Origin: Shigella phage KPS64
Length of the DNA stretch: 64,000 nt
Sequence record: MK562502
Reading direction: 5' to 3' (one strand)
This document shows, piece after piece, positions 33,809-45,252 of the stretch; position 1 is the first letter of the stretch; every line of letters begins with the position of its first letter. The notes beneath the pieces are model-generated. The model did not search any database and was not told the origin of the DNA. It saw only the letters and a program-made list of their open reading frames with translations. A program made the translations under genes and the position numbers.

Positions 33809-33884
33809 TTGGAGTATCGGAAGGGACTCGAACCCTCATAAGCCTGTTTTGCAGACAGGAACATAACCATTTCTGACACCGACA
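33809..33884 (-). tRNA. tRNA-Cys (anticodon GCA)
   Basis: T-arm aaggg-ACTCGAA-ccctc, 7-bp acceptor, anticodon loop CTGCAAA, encoded CCA. Confidence 0.7.
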
Positions 33885-33890
33885 CATAAT

Positions 33891-33983
33891 TTGGAGGAAG
33901 ATACCAGACTTGAACTGGTACGCCGATTTCTCGGTTACTGGCAGTTTAGCAAACTGCTCCCTTACCTTTTAGGGTTAATCTTC
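33891..33983 (-). tRNA. tRNA-Ser (anticodon GCT), long variable arm
   Basis: Perfect acceptor ggaagat/atcttcc, T-arm accag/ctggt, anticodon loop TTGCTAA. Confidence 0.7.
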
Positions 33984-33985
33984 CA

Positions 33986-34783
33986 TTATTTGTTCAGAGC
34001 TTCTTTCATCTCTGGAGTTGCGATAGTATCAATCACACCAGTTTTACATGAATCATCAAACCAGCTTGGTAGAACATTCGCAAGGAAACCATTAATATTT
34101 GTTTTCAGGTATTCTGCAATCAGTGCTGCTTCATCTGCAATCATCTGAGTTACTTCATTAGCATATGCAGTAATCTTTGCAATACCATCATTAATCGCTG
34201 TAACGGCCTGTGTAGCGAGTTCAGAGATTGTATCTAGTCCTTGGTCGATTGCATCTTGCAAATCGCTTAGAACGCTATTTACAGCGTCTATGGAGGTATT
34301 AATCAAATCCATCGCTTTGTTACCGTACTCGGTAGCTACGCCCATGATACCACTAAACGGTGTACATCCAACCTGTTCACCTGCTGCTCCCATAACGTTA
34401 GAGTAACCTTTAGCTACTTGCATACGTTGTGAAAACTCATCTACAGACTTTTGTCCATACTCAGTAAGTGTACTTGTCGTTGAAGTTGTACTTCCAAGGC
34501 TTGTTGTGAAGCTTCCTAATAAGGCTGTTGTCAGTCCAGCAGCAACTAAAATCTGTTGTGTAGCTGGGTCTGTTACAGAACTAATCGAGTTAACTAATGA
34601 TTGAGAGGCAGCTACAGTACCACCAAGAACTGCTGCACCAGTAATAAGAGGGTTTGAGAAACCATTACCAGTTTTAAGGAGATTAAAAATCTCTTTACTT
34701 TGTTCTGTCATCTCTTTCATTATGCACCTATAAAGTTGGTAGCCCATCGGGATTTGAACCCTGTTCTCATGTTTTTCAGACAC
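33986..34783 (-). CDS. hypothetical A/T/S-rich protein (265 aa) embedded in the tRNA array
   Basis: ORF flanked on both sides by tRNA genes. Confidence 0.45.
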   Translation of the reverse strand: MSEKHENRVQIPMGYQLYRCIMKEMTEQSKEIFNLLKTGNGFSNPLITGAAVLGGTVAASQSLVNSISSVTDPATQQILVAAGLTTALLGSFTTSLGSTTSTTSTLTEYGQKSVDEFSQRMQVAKGYSNVMGAAGEQVGCTPFSGIMGVATEYGNKAMDLINTSIDAVNSVLSDLQDAIDQGLDTISELATQAVTAINDGIAKITAYANEVTQMIADEAALIAEYLKTNINGFLANVLPSWFDDSCKTGVIDTIATPEMKEALNK

Positions 34784-34813
34784 GCGCTTTAACCATATAA
34801 GCTAATTGAGCTA
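34737..34813 (-). tRNA. tRNA-like gene, probable tRNA-Phe (anticodon GAA), weak T-stem
   Basis: Anticodon arm cgtgt-CTGAAAA-acatg and CCA end are clean, but the T-stem has only 3 GC pairs and the D-arm is irregular. Confidence 0.4.
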
Positions 34814-34819
34814 TTAAAT

Positions 34820-34895
34820 TGGGGTGACCTACGGGAATCGAACCCGTATAGACCATGTTCACAGCATGGGTCATTATCCATTTATGATAAGGCCA
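34820..34895 (-). tRNA. tRNA-His (anticodon GTG)
   Basis: Acceptor, D-stem tcat/atga, anticodon stem ccatg/catgg, loop CTGTGAA, T-arm acggg/cccgt. Confidence 0.7.
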
Positions 34896-34927
34896 CATTT
34901 AAGGACTCTCGTAAGAACCCTTAGAAG

Positions 34928-35003
34928 TGGCAGCAGTATAAGGATTTGAACCTTAATCTTTCAGCTTCAGAGGCTGGAGCATTGCCAGTTATGCTATACT
35001 GCT
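34928..35003 (-). tRNA. tRNA-Gln (anticodon CTG)
   Basis: Perfect acceptor, D-stem gcat/atgc, loop CTCTGAA. Confidence 0.6.
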
Positions 35004-35009
35004 AATATT

Positions 35010-35088
35010 TGGTACTCCATATCGGATTCGAACCGATACATAACACAGATTTTAAATCTGGCCTCTCTGCCAATTGGAGTAATGGAGC
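35010..35088 (-). tRNA. tRNA, anticodon reads TAA (Leu?) but short variable arm
   Basis: Clean T-arm atcgg-ATTCGAA-ccgat and acceptor; anticodon register uncertain. Confidence 0.45.
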
Positions 35089-35090
35089 AT

Positions 35091-35166
35091 TGGCGGGGGA
35101 TGATGGAGTTGAACCATCTTCTTCGATTTCAAAGACCGAGGTTTTAACCGTGTAAACTAATCCCCT
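35091..35166 (-). tRNA. tRNA-Gln (anticodon TTG)
   Basis: T-arm gatgg/ccatc, D-stem gttt/aaac, loop CTTTGAA. Confidence 0.6.
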
Positions 35167-35392
35167 AACGAACTCTTGAAAGAATATATGCGTTATTACA
35201 TGTATCCTTGTTTTCTGGTAACATTGTTTCAAAGATAACTTGCTTTAGTTCTAATCCAGCAAAATTGTAGACAACTTTTCTGACTTCTAGAGGGTCAGCT
35301 TTCCAACCAACTCTGATAAAGAAAGTATCTCCAAATCTCCCTGTTTCAAGTTTGTCATCTTCTGGGTGTTTTTCAACTATAAGTCTAAACAT
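35165..35392 (-). CDS. hypothetical small protein (75 aa) within tRNA array
   Basis: ORF between tRNA genes. Confidence 0.35.
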   Translation of the reverse strand: MFRLIVEKHPEDDKLETGRFGDTFFIRVGWKADPLEVRKVVYNFAGLELKQVIFETMLPENKDTCNNAYILSRVR

Positions 35393-35410
35393 AACTCACC
35401 CCTTTAAATT

Positions 35411-35487
35411 TGGTGCAGAATAGAGGATTCGAACCCCTAACTAACAACTTCGTAGGTTGCTGCTCTGTCCATTTGAACTAATTCTGC
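35411..35487 (-). tRNA. tRNA-Arg (anticodon ACG)
   Basis: Perfect acceptor gcagaat/attctgc, loop CTACGAA. Confidence 0.65.
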
Positions 35488-35649
35488 AATATCCTTTTGA
35501 GATTCCTGTCTAGCTCTCTTCTTATCTCTTCTGAGAAAGCGTTTACGATGGTCTGTACGCCATTTGTAATAATCTTCTTCACCATCATGTGCTGCACAGC
35601 AGCCACAACTTGCAATTTCAACTTTACCATGTCTACCATAAGGCTTCAT
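35437..35649 (-). CDS. hypothetical basic Cys-rich small protein (70 aa)
   Basis: ORF whose 3' end overlaps tRNA-Arg; real start/stop uncertain. Confidence 0.25.
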   Translation of the reverse strand: MKPYGRHGKVEIASCGCCAAHDGEEDYYKWRTDHRKRFLRRDKKRARQESQKDIAELVQMDRAATYEVVS

Positions 35650-35665
35650 AGGAATCTCCTAAAAT

Positions 35666-35743
35666 TGGTGTTCCAAGACGGATTCGAACCGTCACTAATA
35701 CAAGGTTTGAGCTTGCATCCTCTGCCAATTGGGATACTGGAAC
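35666..35743 (-). tRNA. tRNA, anticodon reads CAA (Leu?) but short variable arm
   Basis: T-arm gacgg/ccgtc and acceptor clean; D-arm paralogous to the tRNA at 35010. Confidence 0.45.
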
Positions 35744-35744
35744 T

Positions 35745-35819
35745 TGGTACTCGCTGAAGGACTTGAACCTTCTTCACCAACTTGTAAGGATGGGGCTTTA
35801 CCATATAAACTAAGCGAGC
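35745..35819 (-). tRNA. tRNA-Val (anticodon TAC)
   Basis: T-arm gaagg/ccttc, loop CTTACAA. Confidence 0.6.
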
Positions 35820-35914
35820 TTTGAAGAGGTCTGAAGCTGTGCCGCTAACTCAACTCCGTGGAATTTGTTACGGTCTTCAGTTGACTCAAGCGGTCTTTCA
35901 CTTGACCTCAAAAT

Positions 35915-35991
35915 TGGTGCTGCTCACAGGACTCGAACCTGCATCTCCATCCTTACAAGGGATGTGCAATAGCCAATTATACGAAAGCAGC
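35915..35991 (-). tRNA. tRNA-Thr (anticodon TGT)
   Basis: Anticodon stem catcc/ggatg, loop CTTGTAA. Confidence 0.6.
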
Positions 35992-35997
35992 ATTATT

Positions 35998-36072
35998 TGG
36001 AGCATCCAGAGGGAATCGAACCCTCAACCTCAGTTTGGAAGACTGTAATTTTCCCATTTAAACTATGGATGC
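35998..36072 (-). tRNA. tRNA-Gly (anticodon TCC)
   Basis: Perfect acceptor gcatcca/tggatgc, loop CTTCCAA. Confidence 0.65.
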
Positions 36073-36078
36073 ACTAAT

Positions 36079-36154
36079 TGGTGGAGAAGCAGGGAATTGA
36101 ACCCTGTACTTAAGTTTGCAAAACTTACGTTTTAACCATGTAAACTACATCCCC
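36079..36154 (-). tRNA. tRNA-Ala (anticodon TGC)
   Basis: D-stem gttt/aaac, anticodon stem taagt/actta, loop TTTGCAA. Confidence 0.65.
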
Positions 36155-36160
36155 ATTGTT

Positions 36161-36236
36161 TGGTACAGGTGGAGGGAATTGAACCCATCGTCTTACTGAT
36201 TAAGAGTCAGCCGCATAACCATTTTGCTACACCTGC
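36161..36236 (-). tRNA. tRNA-Lys (anticodon CTT), weak T-stem
   Basis: Loop CTCTTAA; T-arm gggTTCAATTccc with 3 GC pairs, paralogous to the tRNA at 37640. Confidence 0.5.
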
Positions 36237-36243
36237 ATTAATT

Positions 36244-36321
36244 TGGTAGGAGACAAGGGATTCGAACCCTCAAACACCAACTTCTAAGGATGGTAGGTTT
36301 ACCAATTACCGTCAATCTCCC
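36244..36321 (-). tRNA. tRNA, anticodon reads TAG (Leu?) but short variable arm
   Basis: T-arm and CCA end clear; anticodon register uncertain. Confidence 0.4.
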
Positions 36322-36576
36322 ATTAAATCTTTGTAGAGAACTGCTAAGACGCCAAAGCAACAATGGTATCAAATGCCTTAACAATTCTCTAAAAAGACCT
36401 ATTGGCCTCTGCATAGTCTTGCTTAATCCGGTGACTAGAACCTTTGGAGAGCTTGATACTATCTCTTCTCCGTGACACCTACTAGGTGCTTTACCAGTGC
36501 CGTGTACGCCAATACACGAAGAGGAAACCTGAAACACTTGCTCGAACAAATAGTCTCAGCTTTAAATCTTATTAGG

Positions 36577-36664
36577 CGGTAGATAAAGGAGTCGAACCCT
36601 CACCGTATCTCTACAATGGCAATAGTTTTCAAGACTATTTGGCTTCCATTAGCCGCTACCTACC
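36577..36664 (-). tRNA. tRNA-Ser (anticodon TGA), long variable arm
   Basis: Acceptor ggtaggt/atctacc, anticodon stem atagt/actat, loop CTTGAAA, about 20-nt variable arm. Confidence 0.6.
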
Positions 36665-36677
36665 CCTAATAAGACTT

Positions 36678-36760
36678 TGGCATGGGACGGAGGATTCGAA
36701 CCCCTTTGAGTAAGTTTTGGAGGCTTACGCACATGCCTTAGTGTCTTAACATCGTCCCAT
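36678..36760 (-). tRNA. tRNA, possibly Trp (anticodon CCA); about 4 nt longer than standard
   Basis: Perfect acceptor atgggac/gtcccat; loop CTCCAAA candidate; extra length unexplained. Confidence 0.45.
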
Positions 36761-36925
36761 ACTATATTTCGAAGCTTACCCTGTTATCTCAACACTGTCA
36801 AGCTTCTTCTCAGATTATTTACATGTTCTGGAAAACATGAGATACAGACCACCTCCTTATGAGATTGACTCTTTCAAGTCAATGCGGAGACCCATAAAGG
36901 TCGTCATAGTAATCTGCTAACTAAT

Positions 36926-37045
36926 TGGCAGTCAAGGTAGGAGTCGAACCTACTTACTCTTGAGGGAGCTACCCTCGGCAACTTTCCGACTTTCGTTTAT
37001 CTCTTAACGCGTATCTAAGATAACTTACTCGTGTTGTCTTGACCA
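36926..37045 (-). ncRNA. 120-nt tRNA-like RNA (117 nt without CCA): terminal stem plus canonical T-arm, extra internal hairpins
   Basis: CCA end, T-arm gtagg-AGTCGAA-cctac and 7-bp terminal stem agtcaag/cttgacc are present, but about 40 nt too long for a tRNA. Confidence 0.4.
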
Positions 37046-37052
37046 TTAAAAT

Positions 37053-37128
37053 TGGCACTCCGTATAGGACTCGAACCTATATATGAACTGTTTAGAAGAC
37101 AGTTGCCTATCCTTTAGACTAACGGAGC
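37053..37128 (-). tRNA. tRNA-Arg (anticodon TCT)
   Basis: Anticodon stem actgt/acagt, loop CTTCTAA. Confidence 0.65.
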
Positions 37129-37404
37129 ATTAATATTTTAAAGAGCACTCATTGCATTTAAGCCAAGCCCCTTAAGGGATGCTCTTTAGAATATTGCCCA
37201 CTTTATTAATCATACCGTGGGCTAGTACGCCAAATTCTTTAACAGGGGGTTGGAAGACCCTGCTGGTGTTTAGCCTATTAAGCTACTGCCAGAAAAACAT
37301 TATCGTTTGCATTTATTTTTAAGTTTTTAAAATAGACGCTACGCTAACGAAAACTAAGGTTATCTTAAAGTGGTCACATCTGAATGTCAACAACTTTATG
37401 AAAT

Positions 37405-37479
37405 TGGTTGTAGGTGAGGGTATCGAACCCTCTTCTAACGGTTATCAGCCGTTTGCATTACCATTTATGCTAACCCACA
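37405..37479 (-). tRNA. tRNA-Ile (anticodon GAT)
   Basis: D-stem gcat/atgc, anticodon stem aacgg/ccgtt, loop CTGATAA. Confidence 0.7.
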
Positions 37480-37481
37480 AT

Positions 37482-37558
37482 TGGAGGTTCAGATGGGAAT
37501 CGAACCCACATTCATAGGGCTTATGAAACCCTTGCATTACCTTATCTGCGACTGAACC
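37482..37558 (-). tRNA. tRNA-Met (anticodon CAT)
   Basis: Perfect acceptor ggttcag/ctgaacc, loop TTCATAA. Confidence 0.6.
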
Positions 37559-37639
37559 ATTATAAGTTGCCCCTTTGTAGAGAACTGATTGAGTGGGTGT
37601 TTCCAGCCGCGCATGTGTTCTTCAGTTAAGGGGCGAATT

Positions 37640-37715
37640 TGGTAGAAGTGGAGGGATTCGAACCCGTCGCCTGTCAGATTAAAAGTCTGCCGCATCACCA
37701 TTCTGCTACACTTCC
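37640..37715 (-). tRNA. tRNA-Lys (anticodon TTT), weak T-stem
   Basis: Loop CTTTTAA; T-arm gggTTCGAATccc. Confidence 0.5.
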
Positions 37716-37909
37716 ATTAAATCATCTTTGCAGTAACCTACGCAAACCTTGCTAAAGGGTTTGTAGAGTCATCTCTTATAAGCTAATCTAGAATCATGCT
37801 CAAGAGACTCTTCGGCACTCATGGGACGACTGGTTAGCTCCATAAGTCACTGCAAAGAGGATTACCAGACCGTATTTATCTTAAGTGCTCCCATTACACC
37901 AACACGCCG

Positions 37910-37990
37910 TAACGTGTGAAGGAATCGAACCTTCGCCTTTTCTTTACCAGAGAAATAGATTGTTTATTGTTTGCTGTAAACGGTCTTCTG
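37910..37990 (-). pseudogene. tRNA-like remnant: T-arm and anticodon-arm (loop CTGGTAA, anticodon GGT) without a pairing acceptor stem
   Basis: T-arm gaagg-AATCGAA-ccttc and stem tttct/agaaa found; no 5' acceptor partner. Confidence 0.3.
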
Positions 37991-38139
37991 TAAAATTGTT
38001 GGAACCAGACCAAGTTTTAAATTTTTCAAATTAAATTGGCTTGAAATATTAAAATTGCTTGCTGTATTTGGTCTTCTGCTCCTTTAAAGAATACTCGTAA
38101 GAACTCTTTAAGGGAGGGGCTAAAAAGCCCTCTCAAATT

Positions 38140-38216
38140 TGGCGGTTACGAAGGGATTCGAACCCTCATCATCCTCCGTGACAGGGAGGTATTTTGACCA
38201 GTTAAACTACATAACC
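38140..38216 (-). tRNA. tRNA-Asp (anticodon GTC)
   Basis: Anticodon stem cctcc/ggagg, loop CTGTCAC. Confidence 0.65.
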
Positions 38217-38222
38217 TTTATT

Positions 38223-38307
38223 TGGTGCGCCCATCTGGACTCGAACCAGAAACCTCGAAAGGGACAGTTTTACAGACTGCTGCATTGACCATCTCTGCCA
38301 TGAACGC
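38223..38307 (-). tRNA. tRNA-Tyr (anticodon GTA), long variable arm
   Basis: 85 nt; loop CTGTAAA; variable hairpin. Confidence 0.6.
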
Positions 38308-38316
38308 ATTTAAAAT

Positions 38317-38393
38317 TGGCGGTTAGTCAGGGATTCGAACCCTGTACCATTCGGTTAACAGCCGACCGCACATGCCTTATGTGCTTCCTAACC
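38317..38393 (-). tRNA. tRNA-Asn (anticodon GTT)
   Basis: T-arm caggg/ccctg, loop CTGTTAA. Confidence 0.6.
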
Positions 38394-38476
38394 ATATTAG
38401 TATTACCAGACCGTATCTTTTCATTTTTTCCTATAAAAAATTTTAAGTGTTTGCTGTAAACGGTCTTCTGTAAATT

Positions 38477-38553
38477 TGGAGGCGGGTGTAGGAGTCGAAC
38501 CTACCGATAACATGCTAATGAGACATGTGAGACACCCTTTCTCTATACCCGCA
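38477..38553 (-). tRNA. tRNA with anticodon CAT (Met, fMet or lysidine-Ile)
   Basis: D-stem gaga/tctc, anticodon stem catgt/gcatg, loop CTCATTA. Confidence 0.55.
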
Positions 38554-38640
38554 ATTCTTAATGACCAGACCAAATCTTTTTTGGATTTCTATGCGCGAAA
38601 TTGAAAAGTTTGTTTGCTGTAATTGGTCTTCTGTCAAAAC

Positions 38641-38718
38641 TGGCATTCCCGAAGGGACTTGAACCCTCAAACCACACCTTGAAAGGGTGTTGACTTTACC
38701 TAATTTGTCTACGGGAAT
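38641..38718 (-). tRNA. tRNA-Glu (anticodon TTC)
   Basis: Perfect acceptor attcccg/cgggaat, anticodon stem acacc/ggtgt, loop CTTTCAA. Confidence 0.65.
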
Positions 38719-38724
38719 ATAATT

Positions 38725-38801
38725 TGGTCTCCATTGAAGGACTTGAACCTTCGGCCTTACCGCCCCAAACGGAACGCTCTACCAAGCTGAGCTAAATGGA
38801 G
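38725..38801 (-). tRNA. tRNA-Pro (anticodon TGG)
   Basis: Perfect acceptor, D-stem gctc/gagc, loop TTTGGGG. Confidence 0.65.
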
Positions 38802-44621: not shown

Positions 44622-44915
44622 ATGAGTAAAGTACAGGTTATCTTTCCAATTAATGACTTCAGCTATGAAGCCGAGTTTGACCTGTACGAAGAACTCACTG
44701 ATGATGTTATCTGGAGCGTGGTATCAAAGGCCATTAAGAAACTTTATGGTGGCCTTTTAAACCCTAATAACCCAAAAGTGTCAACAAAGCAAGTTTCCGA
44801 GCCATACACTAGCTATGATGCTGAAAAGAGTAAGTTCGAAATTACTTGCTATGACCTTCTGGTATCTGATAACAAAATCAACTACTTCTTCGTCAGAGAA
44901 TATGCAGATGCTTAA
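44622..44915 (+). CDS. hypothetical protein (97 aa)
   Basis: ORF, no motif. Confidence 0.4.
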   Translation: MSKVQVIFPINDFSYEAEFDLYEELTDDVIWSVVSKAIKKLYGGLLNPNNPKVSTKQVSEPYTSYDAEKSKFEITCYDLLVSDNKINYFFVREYADA

Positions 44916-45252
44916 GCTCCACATCGTTGTTTATAAGAATTTCGCAGATATACAAGAAGCCCTGTCATCAAGGCTGGACAAATGTCAGCAAAGACTATTT
45001 CTGATGTTTGATATGCTTGACTATAAACAACCTGATAAGCTTGTGTATAAGGATGGTACAGTAATCTTTAAAAGGGAAGATTCAGTGACCATTTTTGTTA
45101 AGCATGATATGCCAGCTAAAAATATAGGGATGCTTGAGTTCTACATCTACCAATCCACAGGTATGCGTGGTGAGGGCATCAAAATAGATTCGATTGAGGT
45201 CTTTGAAAAACCGAAGACACCACTTAAAAAGTATTTAGTGAGGAAGTTATAG
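44902..45252 (+). CDS. hypothetical protein (116 aa)
   Basis: Internal ATG at 44902 overlapping upstream stop. Confidence 0.35.
   Translation: MQMLKLHIVVYKNFADIQEALSSRLDKCQQRLFLMFDMLDYKQPDKLVYKDGTVIFKREDSVTIFVKHDMPAKNIGMLEFYIYQSTGMRGEGIKIDSIEVFEKPKTPLKKYLVRKL

Follow-up and report, generated by a model that had tools for sequence, protein, structure and literature searches.

A predicted tmRNA-like RNA with an arm antisense to host tmRNA in a tRNA-cluster spacer of Shigella phage KPS64 and in other phages of Enterobacterales

Trans-translation by transfer-messenger RNA (tmRNA) and SmpB is universal in bacteria and is an antibiotic target, and some phages depend on it. Here we analyze a tRNA-free spacer of 276 nt (positions 37129-37404) in a 64,000-nt stretch of the genome of Shigella phage KPS64 (sequence record MK562502), hereafter called the window. 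Computational comparison shows that the minus strand of this spacer encodes a structured, conserved non-coding RNA, which either descends from the mRNA-like domain and the pseudoknot body of tmRNA or imitates them. At its 5' end, the RNA is an antisense copy of the stretch of host tmRNA that surrounds the resume codon (nt ~85-108). A preliminary description of the locus had suggested either a small RNA or a protein-binding site; the comparisons below point to the former, a predicted non-coding RNA that is conserved, structured and equipped with a promoter.

Few phages have been described as carrying parts of the tmRNA system. A 2014 survey reported the tmRNA gene, ssrA, in Bacillus phage G and in mycobacteriophages only, and in no enterobacterial phage, and the tmRNA database rejects forms without a CCA end. 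Mycobacteriophage DS6A has a tmRNA that consists of the tRNA-like domain only ("no CDS", that is, no coding sequence), a form that reportedly interferes with trans-translation in the host. The RNA described here is its mirror image: the DS6A form keeps the tRNA-like domain and has no template, whereas the phage RNA in the window keeps the template and the pseudoknots and has no tRNA-like domain. We found no prior description of this RNA in the full-text literature, including when searching for its commonest tag strings.

Compared with standard tmRNA (RF00023), the phage RNA has the same U-A at positions -5/-4 of the resume signal, a GCA resume codon, and a tag of 10 codons that starts with AND and ends with small hydrophobic residues and Ala. 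As in tmRNA, the stop codon lies in a hairpin like helix 5 (P5), a structured element precedes the resume codon and H-type pseudoknots follow downstream. The phage RNA differs in its length (~160 versus ~360 nt), in having a hairpin in place of pseudoknot 1 (PK1) and two pseudoknots instead of three, in its additional 5' arm antisense to host tmRNA, and in scoring below the Rfam gathering thresholds. No member of the family has an acceptor stem with G3:U70, a T-arm or CCA. The RNA therefore cannot be alanylated, and it lacks the feature by which tmRNAs are defined, the tRNA-like domain.

The coding pieces of two-piece tmRNAs (RF04321, RF01849-51) also carry the template on a separate chain, and their models give the best Rfam matches. 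However, genuine coding pieces begin with the 5' strand of the acceptor, and their acceptor and P2 helices pair with a piece encoded just upstream. The phage RNA has neither a GGGG-type acceptor strand nor an upstream acceptor piece, and is complementary instead to the template of a complete host tmRNA; its upstream neighbors differ between members (tRNA-Ile, tRNA-Arg, promoter, terminator or hairpin). A complete permuted two-piece tmRNA gene does occur at 2297-2659 of a 42-kb viral contig (L085; tag ANDNDFASEFRLAA), and with its tRNA-like domain it is useful as a positive control for a phage-borne tmRNA. In two AT-rich IMG/VR contigs (L062 and L124), a coding piece with the acceptor 5' strand GGGGGUG and the D-loop GGUUUCGAC contains the tag ANDEVFALAA together with a single hairpin or pseudoknot. 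It precedes a protein gene, has no acceptor piece in its vicinity and may be an orphan that uses the acceptor of a host two-piece tmRNA.

The prophage anti-small RNAs AgvB and AsxR (RF02702/RF02703) resemble the phage RNA in their location, the "moron" region after PR' of lambdoid phages, and in being phage small RNAs that pair with a host non-coding RNA through a variable 5' end. Unlike it, they are 51-60 nt long, bind Hfq, and sponge GcvB or FnrS as mimics of their mRNA targets. The RNA described here is larger and pseudoknotted, has tmRNA as its target and contains a tag frame that looks translatable. No Rfam matches to the AgvB and AsxR families were found in the loci tested.

Distribution, fold and tag frame

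A sensitive BLAST search with the spacer matched 585 phage records. The part in common beyond close relatives corresponds to query positions 49-210 (window 37356-37195, ~160 nt; hereafter the core), and cross-family conservation starts directly after the -10 box of the predicted promoter and stops before the terminal hairpin (both described below). The preliminary description held that a lack of conservation would speak against a functional element; the core is kept across phage families. The carriers are Ounavirinae (Felix-O1-like phages, including Erwinia Kolesnikvirus), Ackermannviridae (Vi01, bering and Klebsiella T751), lambdoid prophages and several groups of siphoviruses of ~46-60 kb (Klebsiella BUCT541, Roufvirus pYD38-A, Salmonella Akira, E. 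coli Bas77, Cronobacter CS01 and a member of the Drexlerviridae). These families have no other DNA in common. In all inspected carriers the region is unannotated or lies under doubtful "hypothetical proteins".

A pattern scan of IMG/VR returned at least 120 loci. One variant alone is present in 137 of 5,426 complete E. coli genomes, always chromosomal and unannotated, within the non-coding late leader of ~1 kb that separates the genes for the Q antiterminator and the holin. The siphovirus copies adjoin structural or terminase genes. Among GTDB species representatives, a strict pattern hit eight species, all of them Enterobacterales, and the host range of the element as a whole is restricted to this order, whose members generally share the tag ANDENYALAA. 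E. coli E2865 carries both the prophage module and the target ssrA.

To assess the fold, we aligned 60 representatives and counted pairing support across 57 distinct homologues. The 30 proposed pairs are formed in 94.8% of cases, versus ~45% when the partners are slid against each other, and 13 of them show double-sided changes; none of 500 shuffles reached the observed values. Read along the minus strand, an AU-rich hairpin (UAUUUUAA...UUAAAAAUA, 37314-37334), seen in the sequence, stands just before the resume signal, at the place of PK1 in tmRNA. All homologues have a hairpin here with a different sequence (CUUUG/CAAAG, UUAUG/CAUAA or UAUUUU/AAAAUA). The P5-like hairpin (37263-37292) has an outer stem CUGG/CCAG, an inner stem UAGC/GCUA and the stop codon in its loop. 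It is paired in 96.9% of cases, and all four pairs show double-sided changes (CUGG/CCAG, CUGA/UCAG, AAAGC/GCUUU, UGCAA/UUGCA).

Two pseudoknots follow. In pseudoknot a (37230-37262), stem 1 is formed by CAGGG (37262-37258) and CCCUG (37247-37243), and is 99.6% paired with three covarying pairs. Its stem 2 joins the loop CCAA (37253-37250) to UUGG (37233-37230); across the family a loop CCRR pairs with a downstream YYGG in 100% of cases and covaries (CCGA:UCGG, CCAA:UUGG, CCAG:CUGG). In pseudoknot b (37196-37229), stem 1 consists of CGUACU (37229-37224) and GGUAUG (37216-37211), in family form CGCACU/GGUGUG, and is 100% paired with three covarying pairs. Stem 2, GCCCAC (37222-37217) with GUGGGC (37201-37196), exists in 12 different complementary variants of 3-8 bp. 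Loop 3 of this pseudoknot (AUUAAUAAA, 37210-37202; family form UGAUUAAUAA) is conserved and A/U-rich.

The resume signal and tag frame occupy 37278-37315 on the minus strand. UAAAU (37315-37311) precedes the resume codon GCA (37310-37308), and its U at -5 and A at -4 correspond to U85 and A86 of E. coli tmRNA. The frame (37310-37281) reads GCA AAC GAU AAU GUU UUU CUG GCA GUA GCU and ends with UAA (37280-37278), giving ANDNVFLAVA, the same tag that ARAGORN reports at a relaxed threshold. Across loci the commonest tags are ANDDVVLMAA, ANEEMYLAVA, ANDEQFLAVA, ANDNVFLAVA and ANDDLMLMAA. We collected 32 distinct tag open reading frames (ORFs), every one intact, of exactly 10 codons and with the stop at the same position (TAA in 29, TAG in two and TGA in one). 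Third codon positions vary most (summed entropy 6.1, 5.0 and 9.9 for the three positions); the final Ala uses GCC, GCT, GCG and GCA, and Leu7 both CUG and UUG. The ratio of non-synonymous to synonymous changes (pN/pS) is 0.56 in the tag frame versus 1.85 and 0.96 in the other two. The consensus has an in-frame UAG seven codons upstream, and inspection by eye of the window and the consensus showed neither an in-frame AUG nor a Shine-Dalgarno sequence; therefore only resume-type entry could read this frame.

An E-value scan of the minus strand against Rfam, the kind of search that the preliminary description had proposed, returned three tmRNA families, all below their gathering thresholds: RF04321 (tmRNA_permuted) with 34.7 bits (gathering 47; E 2.3e-5 on 601 nt), RF01849 (alpha_tmRNA) with 20.8 bits (gathering 50) and RF00023 (tmRNA) with 15.2 bits (gathering 47). 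All three align the same stretch, AAAAAUAAAUGCAAACGAUAAUGU...GCUUAA, to their resume and tag region. Thirteen homologous loci gave the same weak tmRNA matches and nothing else, so the RNA is not a catalogued Rfam family. Even on a minimal reading, the phage RNA represents a structured and conserved RNA family that is new and whose target is a defined RNA of the host. It would work like the template half of tmRNA and probably descends from it.

The antisense arm and the absent tRNA-like domain

The 5' domain of the RNA (UAGUUUUCGUUAGCGUAGCGUCUA, 37333-37356, minus strand) begins with a seed, UAGUUUUCGU (37356-37347), that is perfectly complementary to nt 97-106 of E. coli tmRNA (ACGAAAACUA, tag codons 3-6). 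As the target we used the annotated ssrA of E. coli E2865, which encodes a 363-nt tmRNA. Its nt 85-108, UAGUCGCAAACGACGAAAACUACG, comprise the resume codon and tag codons 1-6 and have the reverse complement CGUAGUUUUCGUCGUUUGCGACUA. The phage 5' domains equal this reverse complement with small central indels, and the remainder of the window domain partly matches nt 85-96, including the -1 triplet and the resume codon. The corresponding domains are CGAUAGUUUUCGUCAGAGUUGGCGACU and AGUUUUCGUCACGUUAGCGACU in lambdoid prophages, UAGUUUUCGUAAGCGACU in a siphovirus and CGUAGUUUUCGU, with a 12-nt perfect match, in an Erwinia phage. Across the family, seeds of 9-12 nt match perfectly and are accompanied by a second arm.

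The predicted duplex energies agree with this assignment. For the window, the 5' domain gives -20.7 kcal/mol with host nt 80-113 versus -10.3 kcal/mol with the equivalent region of the RNA itself. The mean values are -21.0 kcal/mol for the host region and -11.0 kcal/mol for the own region, and the host is the better partner in 44 of 44 cases. On average, the longest stretch of uninterrupted Watson-Crick pairing is 9.6 nt with the host (mode 10) and 4.5 nt with the RNA itself. On the whole tmRNA, the RNAduplex optimum begins at nt 80-92 for 26 of 35 distinct 5' domains, compared with 2 of 350 shuffles. The phage frame has AAU instead of GUC as its -1 triplet, and its codons 4-6 differ from those of the host; because it differs exactly at the seed target, it would escape its own antisense arm. 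Whether set by a promoter or by processing, the 5' end of the RNA is predicted to lie within 0-5 nt of the seed in every lineage. In having a conserved seed against a defined target in a 5'-terminal position, the RNA resembles trans-acting antisense RNAs.

We had considered the conserved GUUUUCGU as a mimic of the tmRNA D-loop (GGUUUCGAC), and dropped this idea because the whole 5' domain is the reverse complement of host tmRNA nt 85-108. Five loci (L072, L215, L223, L224 and L233) form a divergent sub-family whose tag is ANDSEMRVAA and whose 5' domain, GUAGUUUUCUGAGUCUUACGAC..., is longer. This domain is explained by pairing with the ordinary target in which 3 nt bulge out. The extra UGA could be this bulge, or its counterpart could be an additional Ser codon in a host tmRNA; no ssrA with a matching Ser codon was found in viral contigs. 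When we looked for an analogous module of antisense arm and tag directed against ANDDNY-type tmRNAs, only true tmRNAs appeared among the 120 matches listed.

ARAGORN found no tmRNA and no tRNA-like domain in the window element or in ~110 homologues, and manual inspection of both flanks gave none. Depending on the lineage, a TTGACA/-10 pair (as in the window), a tRNA-like hairpin ending in UCCA or a terminator lies 0-12 nt before GUUUUCG, which leaves no room for an acceptor strand. In a Providencia prophage copy an intrinsic terminator directly follows pseudoknot b. In Cronobacter CS01, protein-coding genes follow the core, and the only accompanying element is an upstream hairpin, with no tRNA or tRNA-like element downstream. 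Taken together, these boundaries indicate that the core alone is the unit.

Several candidate acceptors were examined and rejected. The permuted tmRNA with the tag ANDNVFLAVA that ARAGORN reports at a relaxed threshold is completed only by borrowing the T-arm of tRNA-Lys, and the permuted tmRNA match in Rfam borrows that of tRNA-Ile. The terminal hairpin was considered as an acceptor/T minihelix, but here both CCA and a G:U are absent from it, and the apex is variable. Pseudoknot b as a pseudoknotted acceptor like those of plant viruses fails on the absence of a 3' end and on a G:U that is not universal. A tRNA-like "module C" of the lambdoid and siphovirus loci is absent from the window and has U3-A70, and neither of two unannotated tRNA-like elements beside tRNA-Arg has G3:U70.

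Proposed mechanism and alternatives

We propose, with a confidence just short of even, that the phage RNA attaches itself to host tmRNA, covering the tag template of the host and presenting its own template instead. In its complete form the proposal is that of a "template-swap" RNA of Enterobacterales phages, a tmRNA body without the tRNA half that would dock by antisense pairing, silence the host template and substitute a phage-specified tag; we assign this reading a probability of roughly 0.4. The RNA would be made from its own promoter inside the tRNA operon, or in lambdoid prophages from the Q-dependent late transcript, and its 3' end would be set by the terminal hairpin and by RNase P cleavage at tRNA-Arg. 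The 5' seed would anneal to the naturally single-stranded host tag template and mask A86, the -1 triplet, the resume codon and codons 2-6. The following hairpin, which starts at the last paired base, would return the chain to the junction, so that the phage UAAAU|GCA and tag frame would emerge where those of the host otherwise do. Host tmRNA would supply Ala, the tRNA-like domain and SmpB, and the phage RNA the template, the P5-like hairpin and the pseudoknots. Rescued proteins would then receive (A)ANDNVFLAVA instead of (A)ANDENYALAA. Expression is expected to be late, as suggested by the Q-dependent leader in lambdoid prophages and by the position beside structural and terminase genes in siphoviruses.

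Several points weigh against this proposal. All of its support is computational, and the target sequence was compared for E. coli tmRNA only. A duplex of ~20 bp tethering the template to tmRNA could simply block trans-translation. The phage tags ending in LAVA or LMAA are still degron-like, which makes it less clear what the phage would gain from swapping tags. In the window, the second arm is imperfect (GCGUC versus GCGAC), and with four extra 5' nt the global RNAduplex optimum lies elsewhere on tmRNA. The single-sequence z-scores are modest. Our searches revealed no host clade in which a divergent tag would permit a test of co-variation between arm and target.

The main rival is inhibition alone, since no route is known by which a non-covalently tethered template supplied in trans would be loaded. 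On this account the RNA would be a pure anti-tmRNA inhibitor or decoy that pairs with the host tag template and shuts down or dampens trans-translation late in infection, its own frame never being translated; its tmRNA-like body would perhaps titrate S1, SmpB or RNase R. Of the functional features, the antisense arm has the best support, and the DS6A tmRNA provides a precedent for phage interference. We nevertheless consider this account unlikely, though not negligible. It leaves unexplained the coding-type conservation of the frame (10 codons, three different stops, four Ala codons and a pN/pS of 0.56 against 0.96-1.85), the conserved resume context and the intact ORF in 32 of 32 variants, and a plain antisense RNA would have no need for a P5-like hairpin and two pseudoknots. 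Because the seed and an intact coding-type frame are universally kept, we favor the template swap over inhibition alone.

It is improbable that the RNA is a stand-alone coding piece, independent of host tmRNA, that works with another acceptor such as a phage tRNA-like hairpin or the tRNA-Arg(UCU) joined to it in the precursor. In its favor, the core very often has a tRNA or tRNA-like element after it, the example of two-piece tmRNAs shows template and acceptor on separate chains, and the AT-rich viral contigs have an orphan coding piece with an acceptor strand. Yet neither an acceptor 5' strand nor a G3:U70 helix was found near the phage RNA, the partner elements differ between lineages, CS01 has none downstream, and in Providencia the terminator stands between the core and the tRNA that comes after it. 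Nor would this reading account for the conserved complementarity to host tmRNA.

Less probable still, and already disfavored, is an evolutionary relic, that is, a captured and decaying fragment of a tmRNA gene that lies passively in a spacer of the tRNA operon and hitch-hikes with mobile tRNA cassettes. Such fragments are common by-products of island integration, and the region is a known insertion hot spot in lambdoid phages, but integration fragments carry the ssrA 3' end and not the template. A relic would not account for compensatory changes in every helix and an intact frame across families without other common DNA, and the antisense arm belongs to no tmRNA. We regard as the least probable that the spacer contains only a processing or punctuation element of the tRNA operon, a terminator structure or a protein-binding palindrome: although the terminal hairpin abuts tRNA-Arg and similar hairpins occur in the cluster and in the lambda late leader, the minus strand has no U-tract terminator here, the palindrome is unconserved, and such an element could cover 37132-37195 only and not the 160-nt core.

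If the template swap is confirmed, antisense docking would be a categorically new mechanism. It would provide the first example of an RNA that hijacks tmRNA in trans, and tmRNA function would be divided between molecules in a third manner. Late in infection, phages would thereby reprogram ribosome rescue and determine what becomes of the rescued proteins, possibly also of non-stop mRNAs, which would represent a new counter-strategy against host protein quality control. A natural tmRNA template supplied in trans could also serve for programmable tagging, and the predicted tags would be specific peptides detectable by mass spectrometry. The element occurs in hundreds of phages, including Felix-O1-like phages and Kuttervirus of the type used in therapy and prophages of Shiga-toxin-producing E. 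coli, in regions that have been dismissed as spacers.

RNA ends, spacer and neighboring elements

The genome is that of a Felix-O1-like myovirus. Its best match is Citrobacter phage BSwM KMM2 (97.9% over 1.9 kb), and the spacer of Citrobacter phage vB_CbrM_HP1 is 100% identical to that of the window. ARAGORN predicts 26 tRNA genes in the window, all on the minus strand (33810-38801). The spacer is flanked by tRNA-Ile(GAU) (37405-37479), upstream in the sense of transcription, and by tRNA-Arg(UCU) (37053-37128). Because all flanking tRNA genes are on the minus strand, we read the spacer on that strand.

A sigma-70-like promoter (37362-37390, minus strand) consists of a -35 box TTGACA (37390-37385), a 17-nt spacer and a -10 box TAAGAT (37367-37362), with 10 of 12 matches. 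The predicted start at ~37355 would place AGUUUUCGU at the extreme 5' end of the RNA. Matching TTGACA/-10 boxes occur at the same distance before GUUUUCG in an Erwinia phage, in siphoviruses and in other Felix-like phages. The whole RNA is predicted to span 37129-37355 (~227 nt), from this start to the RNase P site of tRNA-Arg.

The terminal hairpin (37132-37195, minus strand) has the form AAUAUU-CU-AAAGAGCA, a 32-nt apex with CCCUUAAGGGG and a second UUAAAUGCAA motif, then UGCUCUUU-AA-AAUAUU; tRNA-Arg(UCU) begins 3 nt beyond it, at 37128. Folded alone, it reaches -18.9 kcal/mol (z = -2.1; 7 of 200 shuffles fold equally well), which is modestly unusual. Relatives show compensatory changes in the inner stem (AAAGAGCA/UGCUCUUU to AAAGGGUA/UACCCUUU) and in the outer stem (AAUAUU/AAUAUU to AACAUU/AAUGUU). 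The same apex is found in hairpins of lambdoid prophages and the same stem base in the late leader of phage lambda. The hairpin is followed by UUUAAAAUAUUAAU, without a U-tract, and a terminator scan lists none on the minus strand here; it is therefore not an intrinsic terminator. It probably protects the 3' end left by the RNase P cut at tRNA-Arg.

The stems on which the preliminary description had focused are all found on the plus strand, at 37140-37147/37180-37187 (the 8-bp aaagagca/tgctcttt), 37169-37178 (the 10-bp palindrome CCCTTAAGGG), 37243-37247/37258-37262 (caggg/ccctg) and 37263-37266/37289-37292 (ctgg/ccag). They are real but are a minor part of the element: the 8-bp stem and the palindrome make up the terminal hairpin, which is variable and lies outside the cross-family core, whereas caggg/ccctg is stem 1 of pseudoknot a and ctgg/ccag belongs to the hairpin that holds the stop codon. 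The resume signal with its 10-codon tag frame, the two pseudoknots and the antisense 5' end had not been noticed. The palindrome is replaced by CCCTTATGGGG in relatives and so lacks conservation, whereas the RNA pairings covary; its reading as a protein-binding site is therefore unsupported. The absence of tRNA genes from 37129-37404 was borne out by ARAGORN and Rfam (including RF00005). The spacer had also been described as free of ORFs; one of 47 aa does exist on the plus strand (37179-37322), but it is not conserved, and antisense-strand ORFs in homologues range from 0 to 72 aa. We rejected as protein-coding both this ORF and a mini-ORF in an AUG frame (MQTIMFFWQ), neither of which is conserved.

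Other structured elements lie in the same tRNA cluster. The next tRNA-free spacer (38081-38134, minus strand) has two adjacent hairpins, the second of which, CCUUAAAGAGUUCUUACGAGUAUUCUUUAAAGG, is similar to the terminal hairpin located after the homologous RNA in Erwinia phage Hena2. This likeness suggests a recurrent punctuation hairpin of the AAAGAG...CUCUUU type in these clusters. Directly 3' of tRNA-Arg, at 36926-37043 (minus strand), is an unannotated 118-nt tRNA-like RNA missed by ARAGORN and Rfam. It has an acceptor stem of 6-7 bp, a discriminator G, an encoded CCA and a canonical T-arm (GUAGG-UUCGACU-CCUAC), and an irregular insert of ~70 nt takes the place of the D and anticodon arms. 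An 86-nt tRNA-like element at 36676-36761 (minus strand) has the acceptor AUGGGAC/GUCCCAU, G, CCA, a T-arm-like GGGG-UUCGAAU-CCUC and an anticodon-like arm with a 9-nt loop, CCUCCAAAA; ARAGORN reports it only at relaxed settings, as tRNA-??? with a 4-base anticodon. A third tRNA-like element at 37910-37984 (minus strand) scores 28.8 bits with the Rfam tRNA model, just below the gathering threshold of 29; its T-arm (GAAGG-UUCGAUU-CCUUC) is clean, whereas the remaining arms are poor.

In the lambda late leader, 3' of tR' (lambda 44787-44939; 988-1140 of locus L133), the same long-hairpin base recurs as GCACAACAGGUAAGAGCAUUG...CAGUGCUCUUUCCGUUGUG and is followed by a further module closed by GUUGUGCUG/CAGCACAAC. 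The same module occurs in other phages as GUUGUGGUG...CACCACAAC, with a D-arm-like hairpin and a T-arm that is degenerate or canonical. It is a tRNA-like scaffold common to lambdoid, siphovirus and Ackermannviridae genomes.

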